The notes under the pieces are model-generated. The model had not been told where the DNA came from. It saw nothing but the letters and a program-made list of their open reading frames with translations, and searched no databases. Below, piece by piece: positions 13,955 through 56,650 of a stretch of DNA of 64,000 nucleotides. Position numbers and translations under genes: made by a program. Positions within the stretch are counted from its first letter, which is position 1, and each line of letters begins with the position of its first letter. The stretch lies in contig CAVVXI010000004.1 in assembly GCA_963752195.1 (NCBI GenBank), forward strand, positions 2,053,641 through 2,117,640. The letters run 5' to 3'. Source of the stretch: an uncultured Bacteroidales bacterium (GTDB taxonomy: Bacteria; Bacteroidota; Bacteroidia; Bacteroidales; UBA10428).

Positions 13955-16502
13955 CTATCTGATCACAACCATTCTCCTTTTCCCTGAAACAGAATTGCCA
14001 TCTATCAGCATGGTGTAAAAATACACACCCGCCGGAAGATTCTGCAGATCAAAGGTCACACTCGAATTTCCCTTGCCGGCTATTGGATACTGACCAACCA
14101 CAAAACCCGACATGTTATAAACCAATATTTTGGCGTTCCCTGCGTTTTCTGACACATAGCAATCAATGGTGGTGGTGGTGGTGGCAGGATTCGGATAATT
14201 TTGTTCCATACCCGATAATTGTAAATCTTCTTCCATTGGCAGGGCAGACTCGTCTGCAGCAATGTGAAATCCCGATTTCATCTCCGATGCGGGGGCGTTT
14301 ACGCAGGCATAGAAAGATCTGCCTTCGTGTGTTCCATCCCCAAGCTGGCCCTCATTGTTGACTCCGGTGCCACAATAACTGCCGTCCGGGTTCATTATTA
14401 TTGAATAAAAAAAGCCTGCCGCAATCATGGAGCAGTTGTTCATGCCTTCCACCGGATCAATTGTAAACATGGCGTCCCCGTTAAAACCATTTCCAAGTTG
14501 TCCATAATAATTGTATCCCCATGACCATACGGATCCGTCAGCCTTCATTGCCAATGAATGCTGATAGCCGGTGGAAATATCTTTCCAGTCCGTGGCATTA
14601 TCTATCATGAAAGGCTTAAGATGGGTTGCTTTGGAAGTATCAGCCAATTGACCATAATTATTACGTCCCCATCCCCATAGTGTTCCGTCCGATTTGAGGG
14701 CCAAAGCATGATCCCATCCGGCAGATATAGTTTTCCAGTCTTTGTCAGATCCTACTTGAACAGGTGAATGTTTATCAATGGTTGTGCCATCGCCCAGCTG
14801 GCCGCGGTCGTTACTGCCCCAGGCCCATAAAGTACTATCCTTTTTCAGCGCCAGCGTGAAATTATTGCGGGTAACCACCATCTTCCAGTCTGTTGAAGCT
14901 CCGATTCTTACAGGGTTTTTTGAGCTCGATGTCAGAACCATTTCCCAGCTGTCCTTTGTCATTGTAGCCCCATGCCCAGAGTGTTCCGTCCGTCTTTATC
15001 GCAAGGGAATAATAATATCCGCCGGTTACCTGTCTCCAGTTATTGGCTGTTCCTATCCTGAAAGGTGTGATTTTTTCTGTTGTTGTTCCGTCGCCCAATT
15101 GTCCTACTATATTAGCTCCCCACACCCATAACGATCCATCCATTTTGATGGCCAGGGTATGATTATAGCCAGGAGAAGCCTGTTTCCAATCGTTGGCGCC
15201 AATCTTCACCTGGGAATATCGGTCAGTTTTGGTTCCGTCACCGATTTCTCCATTTATGTTGCCGCCCCATGCCCACAGGCTTCCGTCCGTTTTCAGGACT
15301 AAACTATGATGGTAAAAAGCGGTCATCTTATCCGCAATTATATATTTAACAATTAACCTGGGCCACCTGGCTGAATCGGGAAATTCCCGCGAACAGAAAG
15401 CCATCCTGCTGTATTTTAGCTCACTTTGTAAGCGAAGCATAAAGCCAAAGCTTTCACCCGGGTTAATCACCATATCCTGAACCATACCGGTGACATCATA
15501 GTTCACATAGTCCTCATCACTGGTTCGAGATTCCGGTAATGCCAGCCTGTGGCTTGTGGATGTGGCCGGCTGTGAATTATAAGTTACTGTTGATTCAGTC
15601 CAGGTTGATGTAATCCTTTCAATATAGCTTGCATTTGACCTGTAAACTGAACCCGGTTTTACCAGGCTGCTTGAATGCTTTGACTCATCATTGATCTGCG
15701 GAGCAAAAGAATAAAGTGTGAGCTGCGCTTCCACAATGACAGCATCAGCAGGAATTGAAGCCACATCAAAATCCATTACACTTCGTTGATTCACCCGGTA
15801 ATTACTTGCAGTCCATTCACCCGAGTAGATTTTAGTGCTTGTCCCGTAATTTGTATTTGCATAGTAATCATAACCGGGTTTTGCAGTCATATACAGGTAA
15901 GCATCCTTGCTGGATGTGAGCGTTACCGTTTTTGTTGCTGATAACGATTGATTGACAAGGGAAGCGTCTGCAGCCATCATCTTATTCTTATACTTTGTTT
16001 TACCGCTTTTTCCGTTATCGTCAGGGTCATGTTTTCTTACAAAATCCATGGAATCAATTCTGGCCATTGCCCTTTTCCATTTTTCTCTTTCGTGTTTTGA
16101 ATTAACTGCTTTTCCGTCAGCGCTTTTTTCATTAATGACAATATTCCTTCCTGCCCTGTCTTCCCCTTCTATCAGCACAAACGGATCTTCAAGCTGTCCT
16201 ATGATCTTGATATAAACCCTATTATCGAGAAGGAAAAAGTCAGTTGCCTTATTGGTCGAAATATTGCGCGTAAAATAGGGCCGGGTTTTGTCATTATAGG
16301 TTACATATAATTTAACAAACCGCGATATATCTTCGGCCTTTAATACGCAATACAACGTAGTCATTGTATCGCTTTTGGATGTCAGCCTGTACTCAAATTC
16401 ATATGTTGGAGTTATCTGGTATGATCGTTCCTGCGCATATGCGTGGGAGAATAGTACCGTCCCACATGCTGCCAAAACAATAAAGCGGATTATTCTTTTC
16501 AT
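13955..16502 (-). pseudogene. Frameshifted gene for a DNRLRE-domain, RCC1-repeat protein with a T9SS type A sorting domain
   Basis: Two overlapping ORFs (14862..16571 and 13955..14962) both carry RCC1 repeats (GQLGDG/GEIGDG ... LWAWG). Removing one A from the coding-strand A6 run (plus-strand T6 at 14916..14921) joins them as GQLGNGSDIELKNPVRIGASTDWK, which fits the repeat pattern. The start ATG at 16502 gives the signal peptide MKRIIRFIVLAACGTVLFSHAYAQ. The C-terminus reads NYPNPATTTTTI ... LPAGVYFY. Confidence 0.65.
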
Positions 16503-16583
16503 GATGAATTGGGATTTAATATTTCTCTTATTACGACATTTCACTGCCTGACGTAATATAAAATTGACCAATCCACCTATTCA

Positions 16584-16680
16584 GAGTGACGAGTGACAAG
16601 AACCCGGGGATAAGTTGGAAATTGAGAAATGAAAAATGAAGAACTAAAAGATAAAAGTGACTGGTGACTGGTGACTGGTG
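16584..16680. repeat. Phased heptamer block: (GAGTGAC)2, then nine consecutive in-phase heptamers drifting from GAAATTG through AAAAGTG to (ACTGGTG)3
   Basis: Read directly from the sequence. Units start every 7 nt from 16618 to 16680 with no phase break. Confidence 0.85.
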
Positions 16681-16697
16681 ACGCTTACGCCGCTGAC

Positions 16698-16769
16698 CTG
16701 CAGAACTGCAGAACTGCAAAACTGCAAAACTGCAAAACTGCAAAACTGCAAAACTGCAAAACTGCAAAA
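16698..16769. repeat. Octamer tandem array: (CTGCAGAA)2(CTGCAAAA)7, 9 units
   Basis: Read directly from the sequence. It is a perfect 8-bp register. A twin array lies at 36224..36295 in the same plus-strand orientation. Confidence 0.95.
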
Positions 16770-16794
16770 CTATTTCCAACCTACAGCCTGGCAG

Positions 16795-16842
16795 CCTAAA
16801 CCCCTAAACCCCTAAGCCCCTAAGCCCCTAAGCCCCTAAGCC
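16795..16842. repeat. Octamer tandem array: (CCTAAACC)2(CCTAAGCC)4, overlapping the valS stop codon
   Basis: Read directly from the sequence. On the minus strand it reads GGC TTA GGG GCT TAG, which is the last four codons (GLGA) and stop of valS. Confidence 0.95.
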
Positions 16843-19455
16843 CCTGATCGCATCCTCTATAGCCCTGATTTTGTGTTCGGCATCGGCTTTTTTGCGGTTT
16901 TCGAGTTCAATCACCTTGGCGGGAGCATGGCTTGTAAAATGCTCATTGTTAAGTTTTTTCATTACCGTTTCAAGAAATCCCTGCACATATTCCAGTTCCT
17001 TTCGGAGTTTAGCCAGTTCATCCTCGGCATTATGAAAATCACCTAACGGCAGATAAAATTCAGCGTAGGAGAGAATCAGGCTGGCAGCGCCTTCCGGTTT
17101 CTCCTCTATGATGATAATCTCTTCGAGGTTGCCCTGCTTAATAATAACCGGATTAAAATCCCCCTGGTAATTGGACGCTTTTACATACAGCGTGAGTTTG
17201 TTTTTACCGGGTATCTGGTTATCGACCCGTACATTACGGATAAATGTCACGATTTCCTTAACCTGTTCAAAAAGGCGGAGCTTTTCATGATCGATGGGCT
17301 TTACCGTGGGTGTTCTTTCATACATAATGCTGAATCCCTGTGGTCGCTCTTTCAGCAAGTGCCAGATTTCTTCCGTAATGAAAGGAACAAATGGATGAAG
17401 GACTTTAAGCAGCACCTCAAACATTTCAATTGTGGTTTGATACGTACGGCCGTCTATCGATTTCTGGTATTCCGGCTTAATTATTTCAAGATACCACGAT
17501 GAAAACTCATCCCAGAATAACTTATAGGCAATCATGAGCGCCTCCGAGATACGGTATTGGGCAAAAGCTTCCTCAATTTCAGAAACGCCCTGTTTTAACC
17601 GCTCATAGAACCATACCGTAGCCCTTTCAGATGCCGGTGTGGGATAGAGGGTTTTATCCACATTCCATGATTTTACAAGCCGGAAAGCATTCCATATTTT
17701 GTTTGTGAAATTCCGTCCCTGTTCAGGTAAACTTTCATCAAACAGCAAGTCATTCCCGGCAGGGGAACACAACAACATCCCCACCCTTACACCATCGGCG
17801 CTGTACTTGGCAATCAGATCAAGGGGATCAGGGGAATTGCCAAGAGATTTTGACATTTTACGCTTTCTCGCATCGCGAACTATGCCGGTAAGATATACAT
17901 TCTTAAATGGCTTGTCTTTCCTGTACTCATACCCGGCCATGATCATTCGGGCCACCCAGAAAAAGAGAATTTCAGGGGCTGTAATCAGATCATCTGTAGG
18001 ATAATAATAGTTAATATCCGCATTCCCCGGATTCCGGATTCCGTCAAATACGGAAATCGGCCAAAGCCAGGAAGAAAACCATGTGTCCAGAACATCCTCA
18101 TCCTGCCGGAGATCATCCTCATTCAGGGCTGGATTGCCTGTTTTAAGCCGCGCAGCTTCCAGGGCCTCCTGCGGATTCAATGCAACAACATAATCAGAGC
18201 CTGTTCCGATATAATAAGCAGGTATCCGCTGGCCCCACCATAACTGGCGGGAGATACACCAATCCCTGACATTTTCCATCCAGTTCCGGTAGGTGTTCTT
18301 GAACTTCGGGGGACACAGGGTTATATTGTCGTTCATTACATTTTCAAGGGCCGGCCCTGCCAATTGTTTCATCTTAACGAACCACTGGATGCTTAAACGA
18401 GGCTCAATGACGGAATCCGTACGTTCTGAAAAACCGACTTTGTTTACATACTCTTCAGTCTTAACAAGCAACCCTTCTTCATTTAATCGGTCGACCACCA
18501 GATCCCGTGCTTTAAACCGGTCGGTTCCTACAAAAAGCAGGGCTTTCTCGTTCAATGTGCCATCAAGGTTAAAAATATCGATTACGGGAAGATTGTATTT
18601 TATGCCAATTTCATAATCATTGATATCATGGGCCGGGGTGATTTTAAGGCAGCCGGTTCCAAATTCCATTTCAACATATGCATCCTGGATTATGGGAACA
18701 ACACGATTTACCATGGGCACAATTGCTTTTTTACCTGCCAGGTGCCGGTAACGTTCATCTGCCGGATTCACACATACGGCAGTATCACCAAGGATAGTTT
18801 CGGGCCGGGTGGTTGCGATGGTTACAAATTCGTCCGAACCTTCAATCCGGTATTTGACATAATACAATTTGGACTTCACTTCACGGTAGAGCACTTCTTC
18901 ATCCGAAACCGCAGTACGAGCCTGGGGATCCCAGTTTACCATGCGGATACCCCTGTATATAAGACCCTTCTTAAACAAATCCACAAATACACGAATAACA
19001 CTTTCTGACATTTCATCATCCATCGTAAATTTTGTCCGTTCCCAGTCACAGGATGCTCCCAGTTTTTTTAGCTGTTCAAGGATAATTCCCCCGTGCTTTT
19101 GCTTCCATTCCCATGCATAACTCAGGAATTGCTCTCGTGTCAGTGTATTTTTATCAATGCCTTCACTTTTCAGTTTGGCTACCACCCTTGCTTCGGTTGC
19201 AATTGAAGCATGATCCGTGCCAGGCACCCAGCAGGCATTCTTTCCCTGCATCCTTGCCCTGCGAACCATAATATCCTGGATTGTATTGTTCAGCATATGA
19301 CCCATATGCAATACACCTGTAACATTAGGAGGCGGAATTACGATTGTATACGGCTTCCGGCTGTCCGGCACCGATTTAAAGAAATCCCTTGCCATCCAGT
19401 AACTATACCATTTATCTTCAACTTGTTTAGGGTCATATTTGCTCGGAATTTCCAT
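16828..19455 (-). CDS. valS: Valine--tRNA ligase
   Basis: Class I signatures are [13 protein letters not shown] (HIGH) and KMSKSLGN (KMSKS). A C-terminal coiled-coil is present. The start was set to ATG 19455 ([17 protein letters not shown]), the usual ValRS N-terminus. Confidence 0.95.
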
Positions 19456-19625
19456 GGGGTAGAATATTTTTGTCAGTATCAACTCATTTTAAGCCCACAA
19501 AAATAGAACTTTTCGGTTGATTGTTGGCACAACTGTCAACTATCACCGACCAACCCTCAACTAATTTACTGCATATGCCTAACATGATTTATGTATTAAA
19601 ATGCAAAACATATGATGAAAACCAT

Positions 19626-25843: not shown

Positions 25844-26480
25844 AATGACGAAAAACTGGGAAGAAAAACTGGCTGCGGAATTAAAAAAACCATTGCCGGG
25901 AATTGATGCACAGTTTAGAATGTCCCCCGATGTCAGGCGTCCCGTTTCCATGGAATATCCGTTAAAAAATGCCGGGGTACTCATCCTGCTGTATCCGGAC
26001 AGGAACCATATATGCACGGTCTTCATCAAACGCACGGAATATGATGGTGTGCATAGCGGACAGGTGAGCCTTCCCGGAGGAATGTTCAAAGAGGAAGATG
26101 GTTTGCTTATGAACACTGCCTTGCGGGAGGCAAACGAGGAAACAGGTATCGATATTTTATCGGTAACAATTATCGGCCAATTAACACCCTTGCATATACC
26201 GGTCAGCAATGTAAATGTGTATGCATTTGTTGGAGTGGCCGGCAGCCGGCCGGCTTTCATCCACGATCCGGCTGAAGTACAGTACCTGATTGAGGAAAGC
26301 CTGGAAGAGCTTTTAAGCGAAGTAAATCACAAAACAAAAACCATGACTTTGTTTGGAAATGAAGTCATTGTTCCCTATTTCGACATTAAAGGCAATCATA
26401 TTTGGGGCGCCACCGCTATGATCATCAGTGAGTTTTCGGAGATTGTGAAGAGAGTGAAAAAAATGATGAATGATGAATGA
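25836..26480 (+). CDS. NUDIX hydrolase (CoA pyrophosphatase-like)
   Basis: The NUDIX box is present (LPGGMFKEEDGLLMNTALREANEETGI). The last five codons and stop (MMNDE*) lie in a GATGAAT heptamer array. Confidence 0.8.
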   Translation: MTEMTKNWEEKLAAELKKPLPGIDAQFRMSPDVRRPVSMEYPLKNAGVLILLYPDRNHICTVFIKRTEYDGVHSGQVSLPGGMFKEEDGLLMNTALREANEETGIDILSVTIIGQLTPLHIPVSNVNVYAFVGVAGSRPAFIHDPAEVQYLIEESLEELLSEVNHKTKTMTLFGNEVIVPYFDIKGNHIWGATAMIISEFSEIVKRVKKMMNDE

Positions 26481-26645
26481 TGAATTATGAATGGCGGGAA
26501 GCGTACTATTATCAAAATGAAAAAACCTCCGGAGGTCAAAACTCCGGAGGTCCGTATCTTAAATCTGATATTATCATTAGCGCGCATTGCGCCATTCATA
26601 ATTCATAATTCATAATTCATAATTCATAATTCATAATTCATAATT
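26463..26645. repeat. Large inverted heptamer-repeat structure between convergent genes
   Basis: The left arm is (GATGAAT)3(TATGAAT)GGCG at 26463-26496. The right arm is CGCC...(CATAATT)7 at 26590-26645. The innermost 15 bp (GAATTATGAATGGCG / CGCCATTCATAATTC) are perfectly complementary. The spacer holds CTCCGGAGGTC twice and a GCGCGCATTGCGC mini-palindrome. Confidence 0.85.
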
Positions 26646-33382: not shown

Positions 33383-33417
33383 AATTATGAATTATGAATT
33401 ATAAATGATGAATTTAA
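33383..33417. repeat. Heptamer array AATTATG AATTATG AATTATA AATGATG AATTTAA in the 23S/tRNA-Ala spacer
   Basis: Read directly from the sequence. It is the same motif family and plus-strand orientation as the left arm at 26463. Confidence 0.85.
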
Positions 33418-33539
33418 AATCCACACCCATAAAAAAACAAGCAGTAATGAAACAACCGAATGTTTCCGTTTCCTAAACTACATTACTTATTTAAAAGAAC
33501 TGAAATTTCGAATTTTAATAGACCACAAACTAAAATTTG

Positions 33540-33613: not shown

Positions 33614-33634
33614 GAGGAATTATCTGTTTATTTT

Positions 33635-33692
33635 TTGATTCGTTGATTTGTTGATTTTAAATCATCAAATCAATAGATCATCAAATCGACAA
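33635..33692. repeat. Octamer inverted repeat filling the tRNA-Ala/tRNA-Ile spacer
   Basis: The left arm is TTGATTC GTTGATTT GTTGATTTT. The right arm is AAATCATC AAATCAAT AGATCATC AAATCGAC. The arms are imperfectly complementary. Confidence 0.8.
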
Positions 33693-35958: not shown

Positions 35959-36223
35959 ATCCGCCTGCATCTTTTTTTCTGATTTTCTTCTACAAAACCA
36001 ATACTGGCTTGATAATGACGAAACTAAATGTTAAAAATAAATTGATATCTATTCCAGGGGTTAATATATAAGGCCTTCTGTTTTGCTGTCCGTAAGTTCT
36101 GATCGAATGGAGGTGAACGAACATATCTCCTTATTACAAGCATTTTGCAAAAATTTACCGCAGAGTCCTCGGGAGGGTGTCCAGCAGAACCGAACAATTC
36201 CTGCCAGCGAAATCATCTTCAGA

Positions 36224-36295
36224 CTGCACGACTGCAAAACTGTACGACTGCAAAACTGCAAAACTGCAAAACTGCAAAACTGCAAAACTGCAAAA
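36224..36295. repeat. Octamer tandem array: CTGCACGA CTGCAAAA CTGTACGA (CTGCAAAA)6, 9 units
   Basis: Read directly from the sequence. It has the same motif, unit count and plus-strand orientation as 16698..16769. It lies 56 nt upstream of the GTG start at 36351 and about 270 nt upstream (on the minus strand) of the distal rRNA promoter candidate. Confidence 0.95.
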
Positions 36296-36350
36296 CCTCT
36301 TTTTGATTTAAAATAATATCATACCTTCGTATTCACTAATTTAATCCTGT

Positions 36351-41743: not shown

Positions 41744-41836
41744 GGACGAGTGACAAGTGACAAGAGACAAGCCAAATGCCAAACCCCAGAACATCTTCTT
41801 TCGTGTCCCTCGTCACTTGTCCCTTGTCCCTTTTTT
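41743..41836 (+). terminator. Long heptamer-built hairpin plus T6 (intrinsic terminator-like)
   Basis: The left arm is GGGACGA GTGACAA GTGACAA GAGACAA G (41743-41771). The right arm is CGTGTCC CTCGTCA CTTGTCC CTTGTCC C (41802-41830). By my count 24 of 29 positions pair. TTTTTT follows at 41831-41836 and the loop is 30 nt. Confidence 0.7.
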
Positions 41837-56388: not shown

Positions 56389-56416
56389 TCTCATCTCTCA
56401 TCTCTCATCTCTCATC
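56389..56416. repeat. Heptamer array (TCTCATC)4
   Basis: Read directly from the sequence. It starts 9 nt after the stop of the DUF362 paralog 2 gene. Confidence 0.9.
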
Positions 56417-56500
56417 CGACCGCTTCAAGGGTCTGCGACCACTTGAAGGGTCTGGCATTGCCAAAAAGGAAAGTATAATTCCTATTGTATGACGTTTCAT

Positions 56501-56528
56501 TAGTTGTTAGTTGCTAGTTGATTATTGG
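56501..56528. repeat. Heptamer array TAGTTGT TAGTTGC TAGTTGA TTATTGG
   Basis: Read directly from the sequence. Confidence 0.85.
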
Positions 56529-56551
56529 TTCTGAAGTCCTGTGGCGCCAGC

Positions 56552-56586
56552 GTCACTCGTCACTCGTCACACGTCACTCGTCACTT
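56552..56586. repeat. Heptamer array GTCACTC GTCACTC GTCACAC GTCACTC GTCACTT (complement of the GAGTGAC family)
   Basis: Read directly from the sequence. The same family occurs at 16584 and 41743-41830. Confidence 0.9.
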
Positions 56587-56594
56587 TCTTATCA

Positions 56595-56650
56595 CTTTTA
56601 GTTTTTCGTTTTTAGTTTTTAGTTTTTAGTTTTTCATTGTTCATTGTTCA
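56595..56650. repeat. Heptamer array CTTTTAG TTTTTCG (TTTTTAG)3 TTTTTCA (TTGTTCA)2, overlapping the aspartate kinase stop
   Basis: Read directly from the sequence. It holds an in-phase 7-nt register over 8 units. On the minus strand it reads AAC AAT GAA CAA TGA, the C-terminal NNEQ and stop of the gene at 56634..57914. The same TTTTTAG family occurs at 21389. Confidence 0.9.

Follow-up and report, generated by a model that had tools for sequence, protein, structure and literature searches.

Dispersed heptamer repeats, such as the short tandemly repeated repetitive (STRR) sequences, the G-quadruplex (G4)-forming heptamers and the TAACTGA repeats, have been known for about 35 years, and no origin or function has been accepted for them. 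The STRR sequences are heptanucleotide repeats of filamentous cyanobacteria, reportedly described by Mazel et al. in 1990. The present work deals with repeats of this type in a Bacteroidales lineage represented by a metagenome-assembled genome (NCBI GenBank assembly GCA_963752195.1). The window, that is, the whole stretch of DNA analysed, covers 64,000 nucleotides (contig CAVVXI010000004.1, positions 2,053,641 to 2,117,640 of the forward strand), and the element in question is the spacer (16572-16827 of the window) between valS, the gene of valyl-tRNA synthetase (ValRS), and the next gene, both of which lie on the minus strand. It is probable, though by no means certain, that this spacer is one copy, decayed and in reverse orientation, of a mosaic cassette dispersed in the genome, made up of what would be relics of the arms of small gene-bearing elements, and not an array that grew and drifted in place. 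The repeats resemble the STRR sequences in their tandem 7-nt units, few motif families, hundreds of intergenic sites and variable copy number, and function is unexplained in both; as in STRR, the 7- and 8-nt units run head to tail, and the motifs of the spacer recur at 16-71 loci each. On the other hand, the host belongs to the Bacteroidales and is not a heterocystous cyanobacterium, the motifs differ, octamers are no less prominent than heptamers, the motif families number about 90, and modules occur in a fixed order, with conserved linkers, in a cassette of more than 30 copies. The system works like STRR but does not belong to the cyanobacterial family. The term STRR has also been used elsewhere (PMC2670836, PMC4046671).

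Three further described systems invite comparison. The G4-forming heptamers, GGGAATC in Xanthomonas and GGGGA(C/T)T in Nostoc (Rehm et al. 2015, PMC4692102), are rich in G as read along the coding strand, overlap a stop codon or lie within 50 bp of one, are over-represented between co-oriented open reading frames (ORFs) and rare between divergent ones, favour about four units per array and show no tie to surface genes. The valS spacer is similar in that its (GGGGCTTA)4(GGGGTTTA)2 array overlaps the stop; it differs in that this stop-proximal array consists of an octamer, GGGGCTTA, has six units and is one of five modules, the other four of which are not G-rich, and its quadruplex is predicted from the sequence. 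The TAACTGA direct repeats of Beggiatoaceae, Cyanobacteria and five Bacteroidetes (MacGregor 2015, PMC4679880) are likewise intergenic heptamers with gene-relative orientation rules, and their patchy spread suggests transfer without a known mechanism. That system, however, has one motif, mostly upstream of starts, whereas here many motifs are found, mostly at stops and in cassettes. Finally, the intervening sequence (IVS) of 23S rRNA in Coxiella, Leptospira and others carries an S23p ORF (Warrier et al. 2016, PMC4990558); in Coxiella it has a 28-bp stem (4 x 7), strain-variable tandem heptamers and the S23p ORF, and is cut by RNase III (PMC4990558). The likeness is that an S23p-family gene for a four-helix bundle lies between complementary termini, as do all six S23p genes of the present genome, which stand between inverted 7/8-nt arrays; yet these genes are outside rRNA, and the valS spacer has neither an ORF nor paired arms. 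Taken alone, the valS spacer is an ordinary, worn member of a known repeat class. The locus adds, among other things, a higher-order organization, a cassette of fixed order in more than 30 copies.

This cassette was found by mapping gaps that hold several arrays, then by their conserved non-repeat linkers, and then with an nhmmer profile of the 118-nt core. Its modules follow one another as (AATGAAY)n, (AAAAACT/AAAAGAT)2 (the second module, spelled GAAAAACTAAAAGATAAAAACTAAAAGTG), a 12-nt junction ATGAAGAAAGTG, (GTGACNR)4, the linker GCTGACGCSGCT and (CTGCARAA)n, after which CTATTCA and (CCCTAARC)n sometimes stand. The profile detects 33 copies at 68 bits or more in the genome; the valS copy, at 78 bits (E = 1e-21, model positions 5-118), ranks 27th of the family. 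All its parts are annotated on the minus strand. GAAATTG AGAAATG AAAAATG (16618-16638) corresponds to a decayed AATGAAY module, as recounting, autocorrelation and the paralogs indicate; AAGAACT AAAAGAT AAAAGTG (16639-16659) is a shortened AAAAACT/AAAAGAT module by comparison with paralogs and with the closest relative found, contig L123; and (ACTGGTG)3 (16660-16680), on a recount and the same comparison, represents the GTGACNR module and has four GTGAC cores. The linker (AC)GCTTACGCCGCTGAC (16681-16697), standing as it should between the GTGAC and CTGCA arrays where the cassette has GCTGACGCSGCT, fits the family consensus GCTGACGCSGCTGA and is kept in at least 30 paralogs as well as in L123. 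It is followed by the octamer array (CTGCAGAA)2(CTGCAAAA)7 (16698-16769; Tandem Repeats Finder (TRF) score 134).

Across the family, the GTGAC array has four cores nearly always, and the octamer array may have as few as 0 or as many as 22 units. In 23 of the 33, it is the left end of the cassette that points to the 3' end of a gene; the valS copy has the minority (head, tail) orientation. Its core is also one of the most decayed that the family has, its best paralog being 79% identical as against a family median of 92%. The copies occupy gaps between genes, including gaps within operons; full copies are seen inside trpG-trpD (C1:1204832), nuoJ-nuoK (C4:383821) and murD-ftsW (C4:2134160). A search of 40 other genomes, 24 of them congeners and 16 belonging to different families of the order, did not recover the full core outside the present genome; the 24 congeners had single cassette modules only. 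The most alike pair of cassettes (C4:1489972-1490348 and C4:1495266-1495562; 96-97% identical to the query, both ending in CCCTAARC arrays) is inverted, with the two copies about 4.9 kb apart and bracketing a small gene group with a galactokinase-like gene.

The motifs themselves are also shared genome-wide. With a TRF score of at least 40, the 4.99-Mb genome contains 329 period-7 and 233 period-8 arrays of about 90 motifs, few of them dominant; the commonest are AAAACTGC (71 loci), AATTATG (63) and AACAATG (33). A third-order Markov simulation of the 2.7-Mb contig gave no period-7 or period-8 array at this threshold, where the contig itself has 465. All the perfect motifs of the valS spacer are families of this kind: AAAACTGC with 71 loci, AAGCCCCT/AAACCCCT with 25, ACCAGTC with 16 and ACGAGTG with 21.

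These observations change the interpretation of the spacer, although its description largely stands. The sequence-only reading had seen in 16584-16842 five blocks of heptamers and octamers, and a recount places all five where they had been reported, in four array stretches: (GAGTGAC)2 at 16584-16597, nine heptamers at 16618-16680, (CTGCAGAA)2(CTGCAAAA)7 at 16698-16769 and (CCTAAACC)2(CCTAAGCC)4 at 16795-16842. The three perfect arrays were found independently by TRF, with scores of 52, 134 and 88. The nine heptamers (GAAATTG, AGAAATG, AAAAATG, AAGAACT, AAAAGAT, AAAAGTG, then ACTGGTG three times) do share a single 7-nt phase, the recount showing no break in it, and period-specific autocorrelation over the six degenerate ones gives a lag-7 value of 0.66 (P = 0.0006 against shuffles; P = 0.005 for any lag from 3 to 12). 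To say that the spacer consists almost entirely of repeats was too much: the blocks make up 197 of 259 nt (76%), and three linkers of 20, 17 and 25 nt separate them. Register is kept within the blocks and across the three heptamer sub-blocks, but the linkers are not multiples of their neighbours' period.

The continuous phase had been taken as the trace of growth, and this could not be upheld. An exact ValRS look-up for strains of the same species gave no match, the best relative being L123, whose ValRS is 93.8% identical. Its spacer is related: it carries the cassette at the same site and in the same orientation, with 84% mean column identity throughout the alignment, and the valS copy was already present in the common ancestor with L123. 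Between AAAAGTG and GTGAC, 24 of 29 scorable paralogs have 12 nt; this junction, ATGAAGAAAGTG, is also present in the L123 ortholog and moves the GTG register by 5 nt. Only the valS copy, where the junction is absent, and one other locus have no nucleotides between the two. This absence appears to be a derived loss, and not a reason to exclude the copy from the family. In comparison with L123, the valS copy is without 19 nt, namely the 12-nt junction and one TTTTAGT unit, and its heptamer phase is seamless because of this 19-nt deletion, a secondary event that fused three heptamer modules into one phase.

Under the model of the sequence-only reading, the spacer arose in place by unit duplication and divergence, so that the drift of its motifs would be its history. 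Period 7 is indeed significant even in the degenerate heptamers, each octamer array has two sub-types one base apart (CTGCAGAA and CTGCAAAA; CCTAAACC and CCTAAGCC), the GGGGCTTA array is confined to this lineage and corresponds to native codons of valS, and a sister lineage shows an indel of one unit: its metagenome contigs L121 and L122, which are not of this species, have identical ValRS, and their spacers differ only by one 7-nt (CACTCGT)n unit (five in L121, four in L122), a unit-number polymorphism such as the sequence-only reading had asked for. Unit duplication and point divergence therefore do occur. However, the succession of motifs does not come from an array drifting in place: its modules, with their order and linkers, return at 33 or more further loci and in the ortholog, every perfect motif is a genome-wide family, and the phase has the explanation just given. 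Growth in place is on these grounds very unlikely as the origin of the spacer. Independent insertions, the contrast drawn by the sequence-only reading, are wrong as well, the blocks having arrived jointly as a single cassette.

The same comparison traces one orthologous spacer through deletion, concerted replacement, homogenization and the birth of an array from the last codons of a gene. Where L123 has GAGTGAC/AAGTGAC, the valS copy has CTGGTGAC units, with two changes in each of three units, which points to their concerted replacement. The octamer array, heterogeneous in L123, has seven identical TTTTGCAG units at valS and has been homogenized. The (GGGGCTTA)6 array is present at valS and absent from L123. 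The valS gene (16828-19482; Pfam tRNA-synt_1, Anticodon_1 and Val_tRNA-synt_C) has its TAG stop at 16828-16830, within the last octamer array (CCTAAACC)2(CCTAAGCC)4 (16795-16845; TRF score 88), which extends 18 nt into the gene, so that the final five or so codons (R-G-L-G-A) overlap the CCTAAGCC array; on the mRNA strand this array reads (GGGGCTTA)4(GGGGTTTA)2, with a TAG in each unit. Since ValRS ends in RGLG-x in all 15 relatives examined, and L123 has no GGGGCTTA array, (GGGGCTTA)6 evidently grew in place, presumably by slippage, from AGG GGC TTA GGG, the gene's own last codons, and one of its units now supplies the stop.

The core of the L123 cassette is 92% identical to a paralog in the present genome and 76-82% identical to its own ortholog at valS, which suggests either a conserved master sequence or ongoing homogenization. 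In general, unit numbers would change through replication slippage, and modules may move or be exchanged between loci through ectopic recombination, gene conversion or some other mobilization.

A possible source of the motifs is offered by the S23p-type genes. All six genes of this genome with the PF05635 domain (23S_rRNA_IVP, an S23p-type four-helix bundle) lie between inverted 7/8-nt arrays (C4:2586828, C4:1337023, C4:2678296, C4:2685043, C4:2696006 and C4:1565888), with one arm motif per gene: RAGGGAC, AACTATC, AATCGGT, CTGCAGAA, AATTATG and AAAAACT. Framing by arrays is rare, being seen for 14 of 4,055 ORFs in the genome, of which the PF05635 genes account for six and other genes for eight. 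Nine congeners offered 24 PF05635 genes that could be scored; the two flanks are complementary, far beyond shuffles, in 16 of them, and the arms are 7- or 8-periodic in 15 of the 16. The flanks were scored by local alignment against shuffles, a strict exact-run detector having undercounted them. The arms share motifs with the valS spacer, namely CTGCAGAA and AAAAACT in this genome and GTGACTGGTGAC and AAGTGACGAGTGAC, the two GTGAC motifs of the spacer, in congeners; congener G010, moreover, has a PF05635 gene whose arms consist of the GTGACNR motif. In addition, AAAAACT arms frame the gene at C4:1565888, and the AAAAACT module of the cassette with its junction resembles the left end of that element. 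The genome's single gene for PDDEXK_3 (GxxExxY), considered as another armed gene, is not framed by arrays, and one split reverse transcriptase locus was found.

On the reading favoured above, the motifs would have originated as inverted arms of small cassettes carrying a four-helix-bundle gene of the S23p/23S-rRNA-IVS type, and the valS spacer, in which the ORF list and a Pfam search reveal no PF05635 ORF, would be a stack of unpaired, gene-less arm relics. A broader conjecture, which we put forward tentatively and regard as possible but doubtful, is that STRR-like arrays at large are no mere products of slippage but arms, or gene-less or one-armed relics, of undescribed selfish S23p/Avd-like cassettes akin to the 23S rRNA IVS, fused in this Bacteroidales genus into a composite that spreads or is homogenized as one unit and reaches even the spacers of operons. 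If this is true, the heptamer repeats of cyanobacteria, Xanthomonas, Beggiatoaceae and Bacteroidetes would share their origin; the match between the repeat vocabulary and the inverted arms of S23p-type genes makes the origin of such repeats testable.

Several points weigh against the account of the spacer as a dispersed cassette of arm relics. No mobilizing enzyme, target-site duplication or filled-versus-empty pair was identified, so that 'dispersal' is drawn only from copy number and similarity. No PF05635 gene with CCCTAARC arms was seen; inverted pairs of the same motif involve 104 of 992 arrays (about 10%), and the valS arrays have no inverted partner of the same motif within 5 kb. With few inverted pairs and no partner at valS, the arm-relic origin is indirect for this locus. 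It could also be that S23p genes land in pre-existing arrays and do not bring the arrays with them. The remaining points come partly from the placement of arrays, for which the gene calls are an ORF-based approximation made here. Of the 562 arrays at TRF 40 or more, 503 are intergenic, most of the others being gene-calling artefacts, and arrays make up about 9% of intergenic DNA. Convergent gaps are enriched in them (33% of arrays, 15% of gaps) and divergent gaps depleted (9% of arrays, 17% of gaps). Orientation is fixed for each motif at stop codons, with the opposite orientation some 100-150 nt further downstream: GCAGTTTT is on the sense strand in all 21 arrays within 5 nt of a stop, and the AAGCCCCT/AAACCCCT family, in the orientation found at valS, lies within 5 nt of a stop in 7 of 10 cases. 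Rules of this kind agree with those given by Rehm et al. for G-rich heptamers (PMC4692102). Such strong orientation rules could signal selection for function. So could the distribution of heptamer arrays by size, 222 and 199 of which have 3 and 4 units and 51 five, a shoulder followed by a sharp drop, and so could the fact that the cassette consensus is conserved from species to species; none of the three is what neutral filler would lead one to expect.

These regularities would fit selected cis-acting RNA or DNA signals, that is, a terminator-like 3' element of valS, composed of a G-quadruplex at the stop and a (UUUUGCAG)n fold-back with U tracts, or modules between cistrons acting in RNA processing or as insulators; the grammar of the cassette would then be an expression of function. 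Besides the enrichment at gene 3' ends, the depletion in divergent gaps and the fixed orientation, the shoulder at about four units is like that of the G4 heptamers (Rehm et al., PMC4692102), species differ less in the cassette consensus than in the orthologous copy, and the IVS stems that bear S23p are RNase III substrates (PMC4990558). The G4 tracts of the (GGGGCTTA)4(GGGGTTTA)2 array are predicted to be quadruplex-prone. Similarly, (CTGCAGAA)2(CTGCAAAA)7 reads (UUUUGCAG)n on the mRNA strand and is self-complementary through UGCA and G-U pairs, and the (UUUUGCAG)9 fold-back is retained as the sole helix of the centroid structure. However, the fold z-score of the spacer RNA is -1.9, which is not convincing, and a terminator scan of the spacer gave no terminator-like site, with promoter-like sites at chance level. 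Cassettes also occur within three operons, nuo, dcw and trp, in which a terminator would do harm, and the valS copy is decayed and in the minority orientation. An Rfam search returned rRNA and tRNA only for the whole window and a chance match for the region (mir-991, E = 0.74).

Comparison among congeners, made with the valS, trpG-trpD and nuoJ-nuoK spacers, argues in the same direction. The orthologous spacers hold other modules, flipped orientations or no arrays: in nuoJ-nuoK and trpG-trpD the skeletons are shared, modules are swapped and the octamer orientation is flipped, and two congeners have short trpG-trpD spacers without arrays, while the valS 3' spacer has different arrays, plain hairpins or none across the genus. 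A selected cis-acting signal is therefore rather unlikely to explain the valS spacer. Nothing shows a dedicated function at valS. As a worn cassette copy, the spacer probably has no selected function of its own and would fill the space between the valS stop and the next promoter, with possible side effects on the mRNA through the quadruplex-prone tracts at the stop and the (UUUUGCAG)9 fold-back with its U tracts.

Fixed-order mosaics of short intergenic modules with conserved linkers bring to mind the bacterial interspersed mosaic elements (BIMEs) of Proteobacteria, which are said to combine repetitive extragenic palindromic (REP) units associated with REP-associated tyrosine transposases (RAYTs), in work reportedly due to Gilson et al., Nunvar et al. 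in 2010 and Bertels and Rainey in 2011. On this analogy, the arrays would have been spread as accessory motifs by RAYTs. The genome has seven Y1_Tnp matches, three of them flanked by hairpin repeat families of their own, and RAYT-like genes and REP-like hairpins sometimes adjoin arrays; the hairpins CAATAACCGTGGGTG.AACCC.CGG and TTCTACCGATAG..AATCCCT...GGGATT do so next to heptamer modules in some cassettes. By contrast, folding and an inverted-repeat search found no palindromic REP unit in the valS spacer, and most cassette copies have no REP hairpin either. The arrays here are tandem, without palindromes, and lack a stem-loop of the sort recognized by Y1 transposases. An origin in a REP/RAYT system is thus highly improbable, and RAYT was rejected as the mobilizer, the RAYT genes being flanked by hairpin REPs and not by arrays. 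The three RAYT-like Y1 genes with their own hairpin families are at C4:1217276-1217722, C4:829989-830477 and C1:1391557-1392021; two of the RAYT hairpins are also found in or beside heptamer cassettes, and one in the valS spacer of congener G047.

The gene downstream of the spacer encodes a secreted CBM96/RCC1-repeat protein with a type IX secretion system (T9SS) sorting domain (13955-16502, minus strand, ATG at 16502; Pfam and ORF list), the T9SS domain being in keeping with a host from the Bacteroidales. The non-repeat stretch 5' of its ATG (16504-16583, minus strand) aligns in G020, G024, G047, L121 and L123 and is probably the promoter and leader of this gene (..GGTCAATTTTATATTACG..TCGTAATAAGAGAAATATTAAATCC..). 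It adjoins (GAGTGAC)2 (16584-16597, minus strand). In the clade sharing the RCC1 gene, the features conserved are these 80 nt beside the promoter and the presence of a GTCACTC-type array, of about 2-5 units, at the (GAGTGAC)2 position in all relatives. Such an arrangement could be taken for a contingency repeat, (GAGTGAC)n tuning the promoter of the RCC1/CBM96 gene by phase variation: the array lies directly upstream of the promoter-like region, it differs by one unit between two samples, and the downstream product is secreted and of surface type. Yet it falls outside the conserved core, about 80 nt from the ATG, and its motif occurs as ACGAGTG at 21 loci, next to unrelated housekeeping genes. 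Rehm et al. (PMC4692102) found no link of the repeat class to surface genes. We therefore give a contingency repeat almost no credence. The CBM96/RCC1/T9SS gene itself is present in two frames (14862-16502 and 13955-14962) that overlap by about 100 nt; its counterpart in relatives is a single, undivided gene of about 850 aa. Either the gene is frameshifted or a pseudogene here, or the split comes from faulty assembly.

Two linkers of the spacer have features of their own. The 20-nt linker AAGAACCCGGGGATAAGTTG (16598-16617, minus strand) is partly conserved in the L123 alignment (AACTTATCCC on the sense strand). The 25-nt linker CTATTTCCAACCTACAGCCTGGCAG (16770-16794, minus strand) contains remnants of the ACAGCCT motif family, and the pairing of AAGCCCCT with ACAGCCT is seen again at C4:118267. 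Within it, ATTTCCAACCTA is 92% complementary to 16611-16622; the resulting 12-nt inverted repeat (16611-16622 and 16772-16783), the spacer's only one, considered as a candidate for terminal inverted repeats, is at chance level (about 0.2 expected, by a rough estimate) and is not common to the paralogs.

The window has five more loci of the same kind. In the rRNA operon (minus strand), octamer arrays that mirror each other, (GATTTGAT)n and then (ATCAACAA/ATCAACGA)n, form a hairpin at 33625-33692 between the two tRNA genes of the 16S-23S spacer; (AATTATG)n is found just upstream of the 23S gene (33383-33418), and (ACTGCAAA)9 some 750 nt upstream of the 16S gene (36223-36296). Array mosaics occur at 26462-26645, 41745-41832 and 56389-56634. 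In these, a duplicated CTCCGGAGGTC hairpin is surrounded by (AATGATG)n and (ATTCATA)n, (GACAAGT)n and (ACTTGTC)n mirror each other, and six modules form a stack. Finally, the 54 inverted same-motif array pairs of the genome have a purine-rich 5' arm (0.60) and a pyrimidine-rich 3' arm (0.39), so that they read X...rc(X) with X rich in purines, the reverse being rare; since the pairs are inverted, this pattern is independent of strand.

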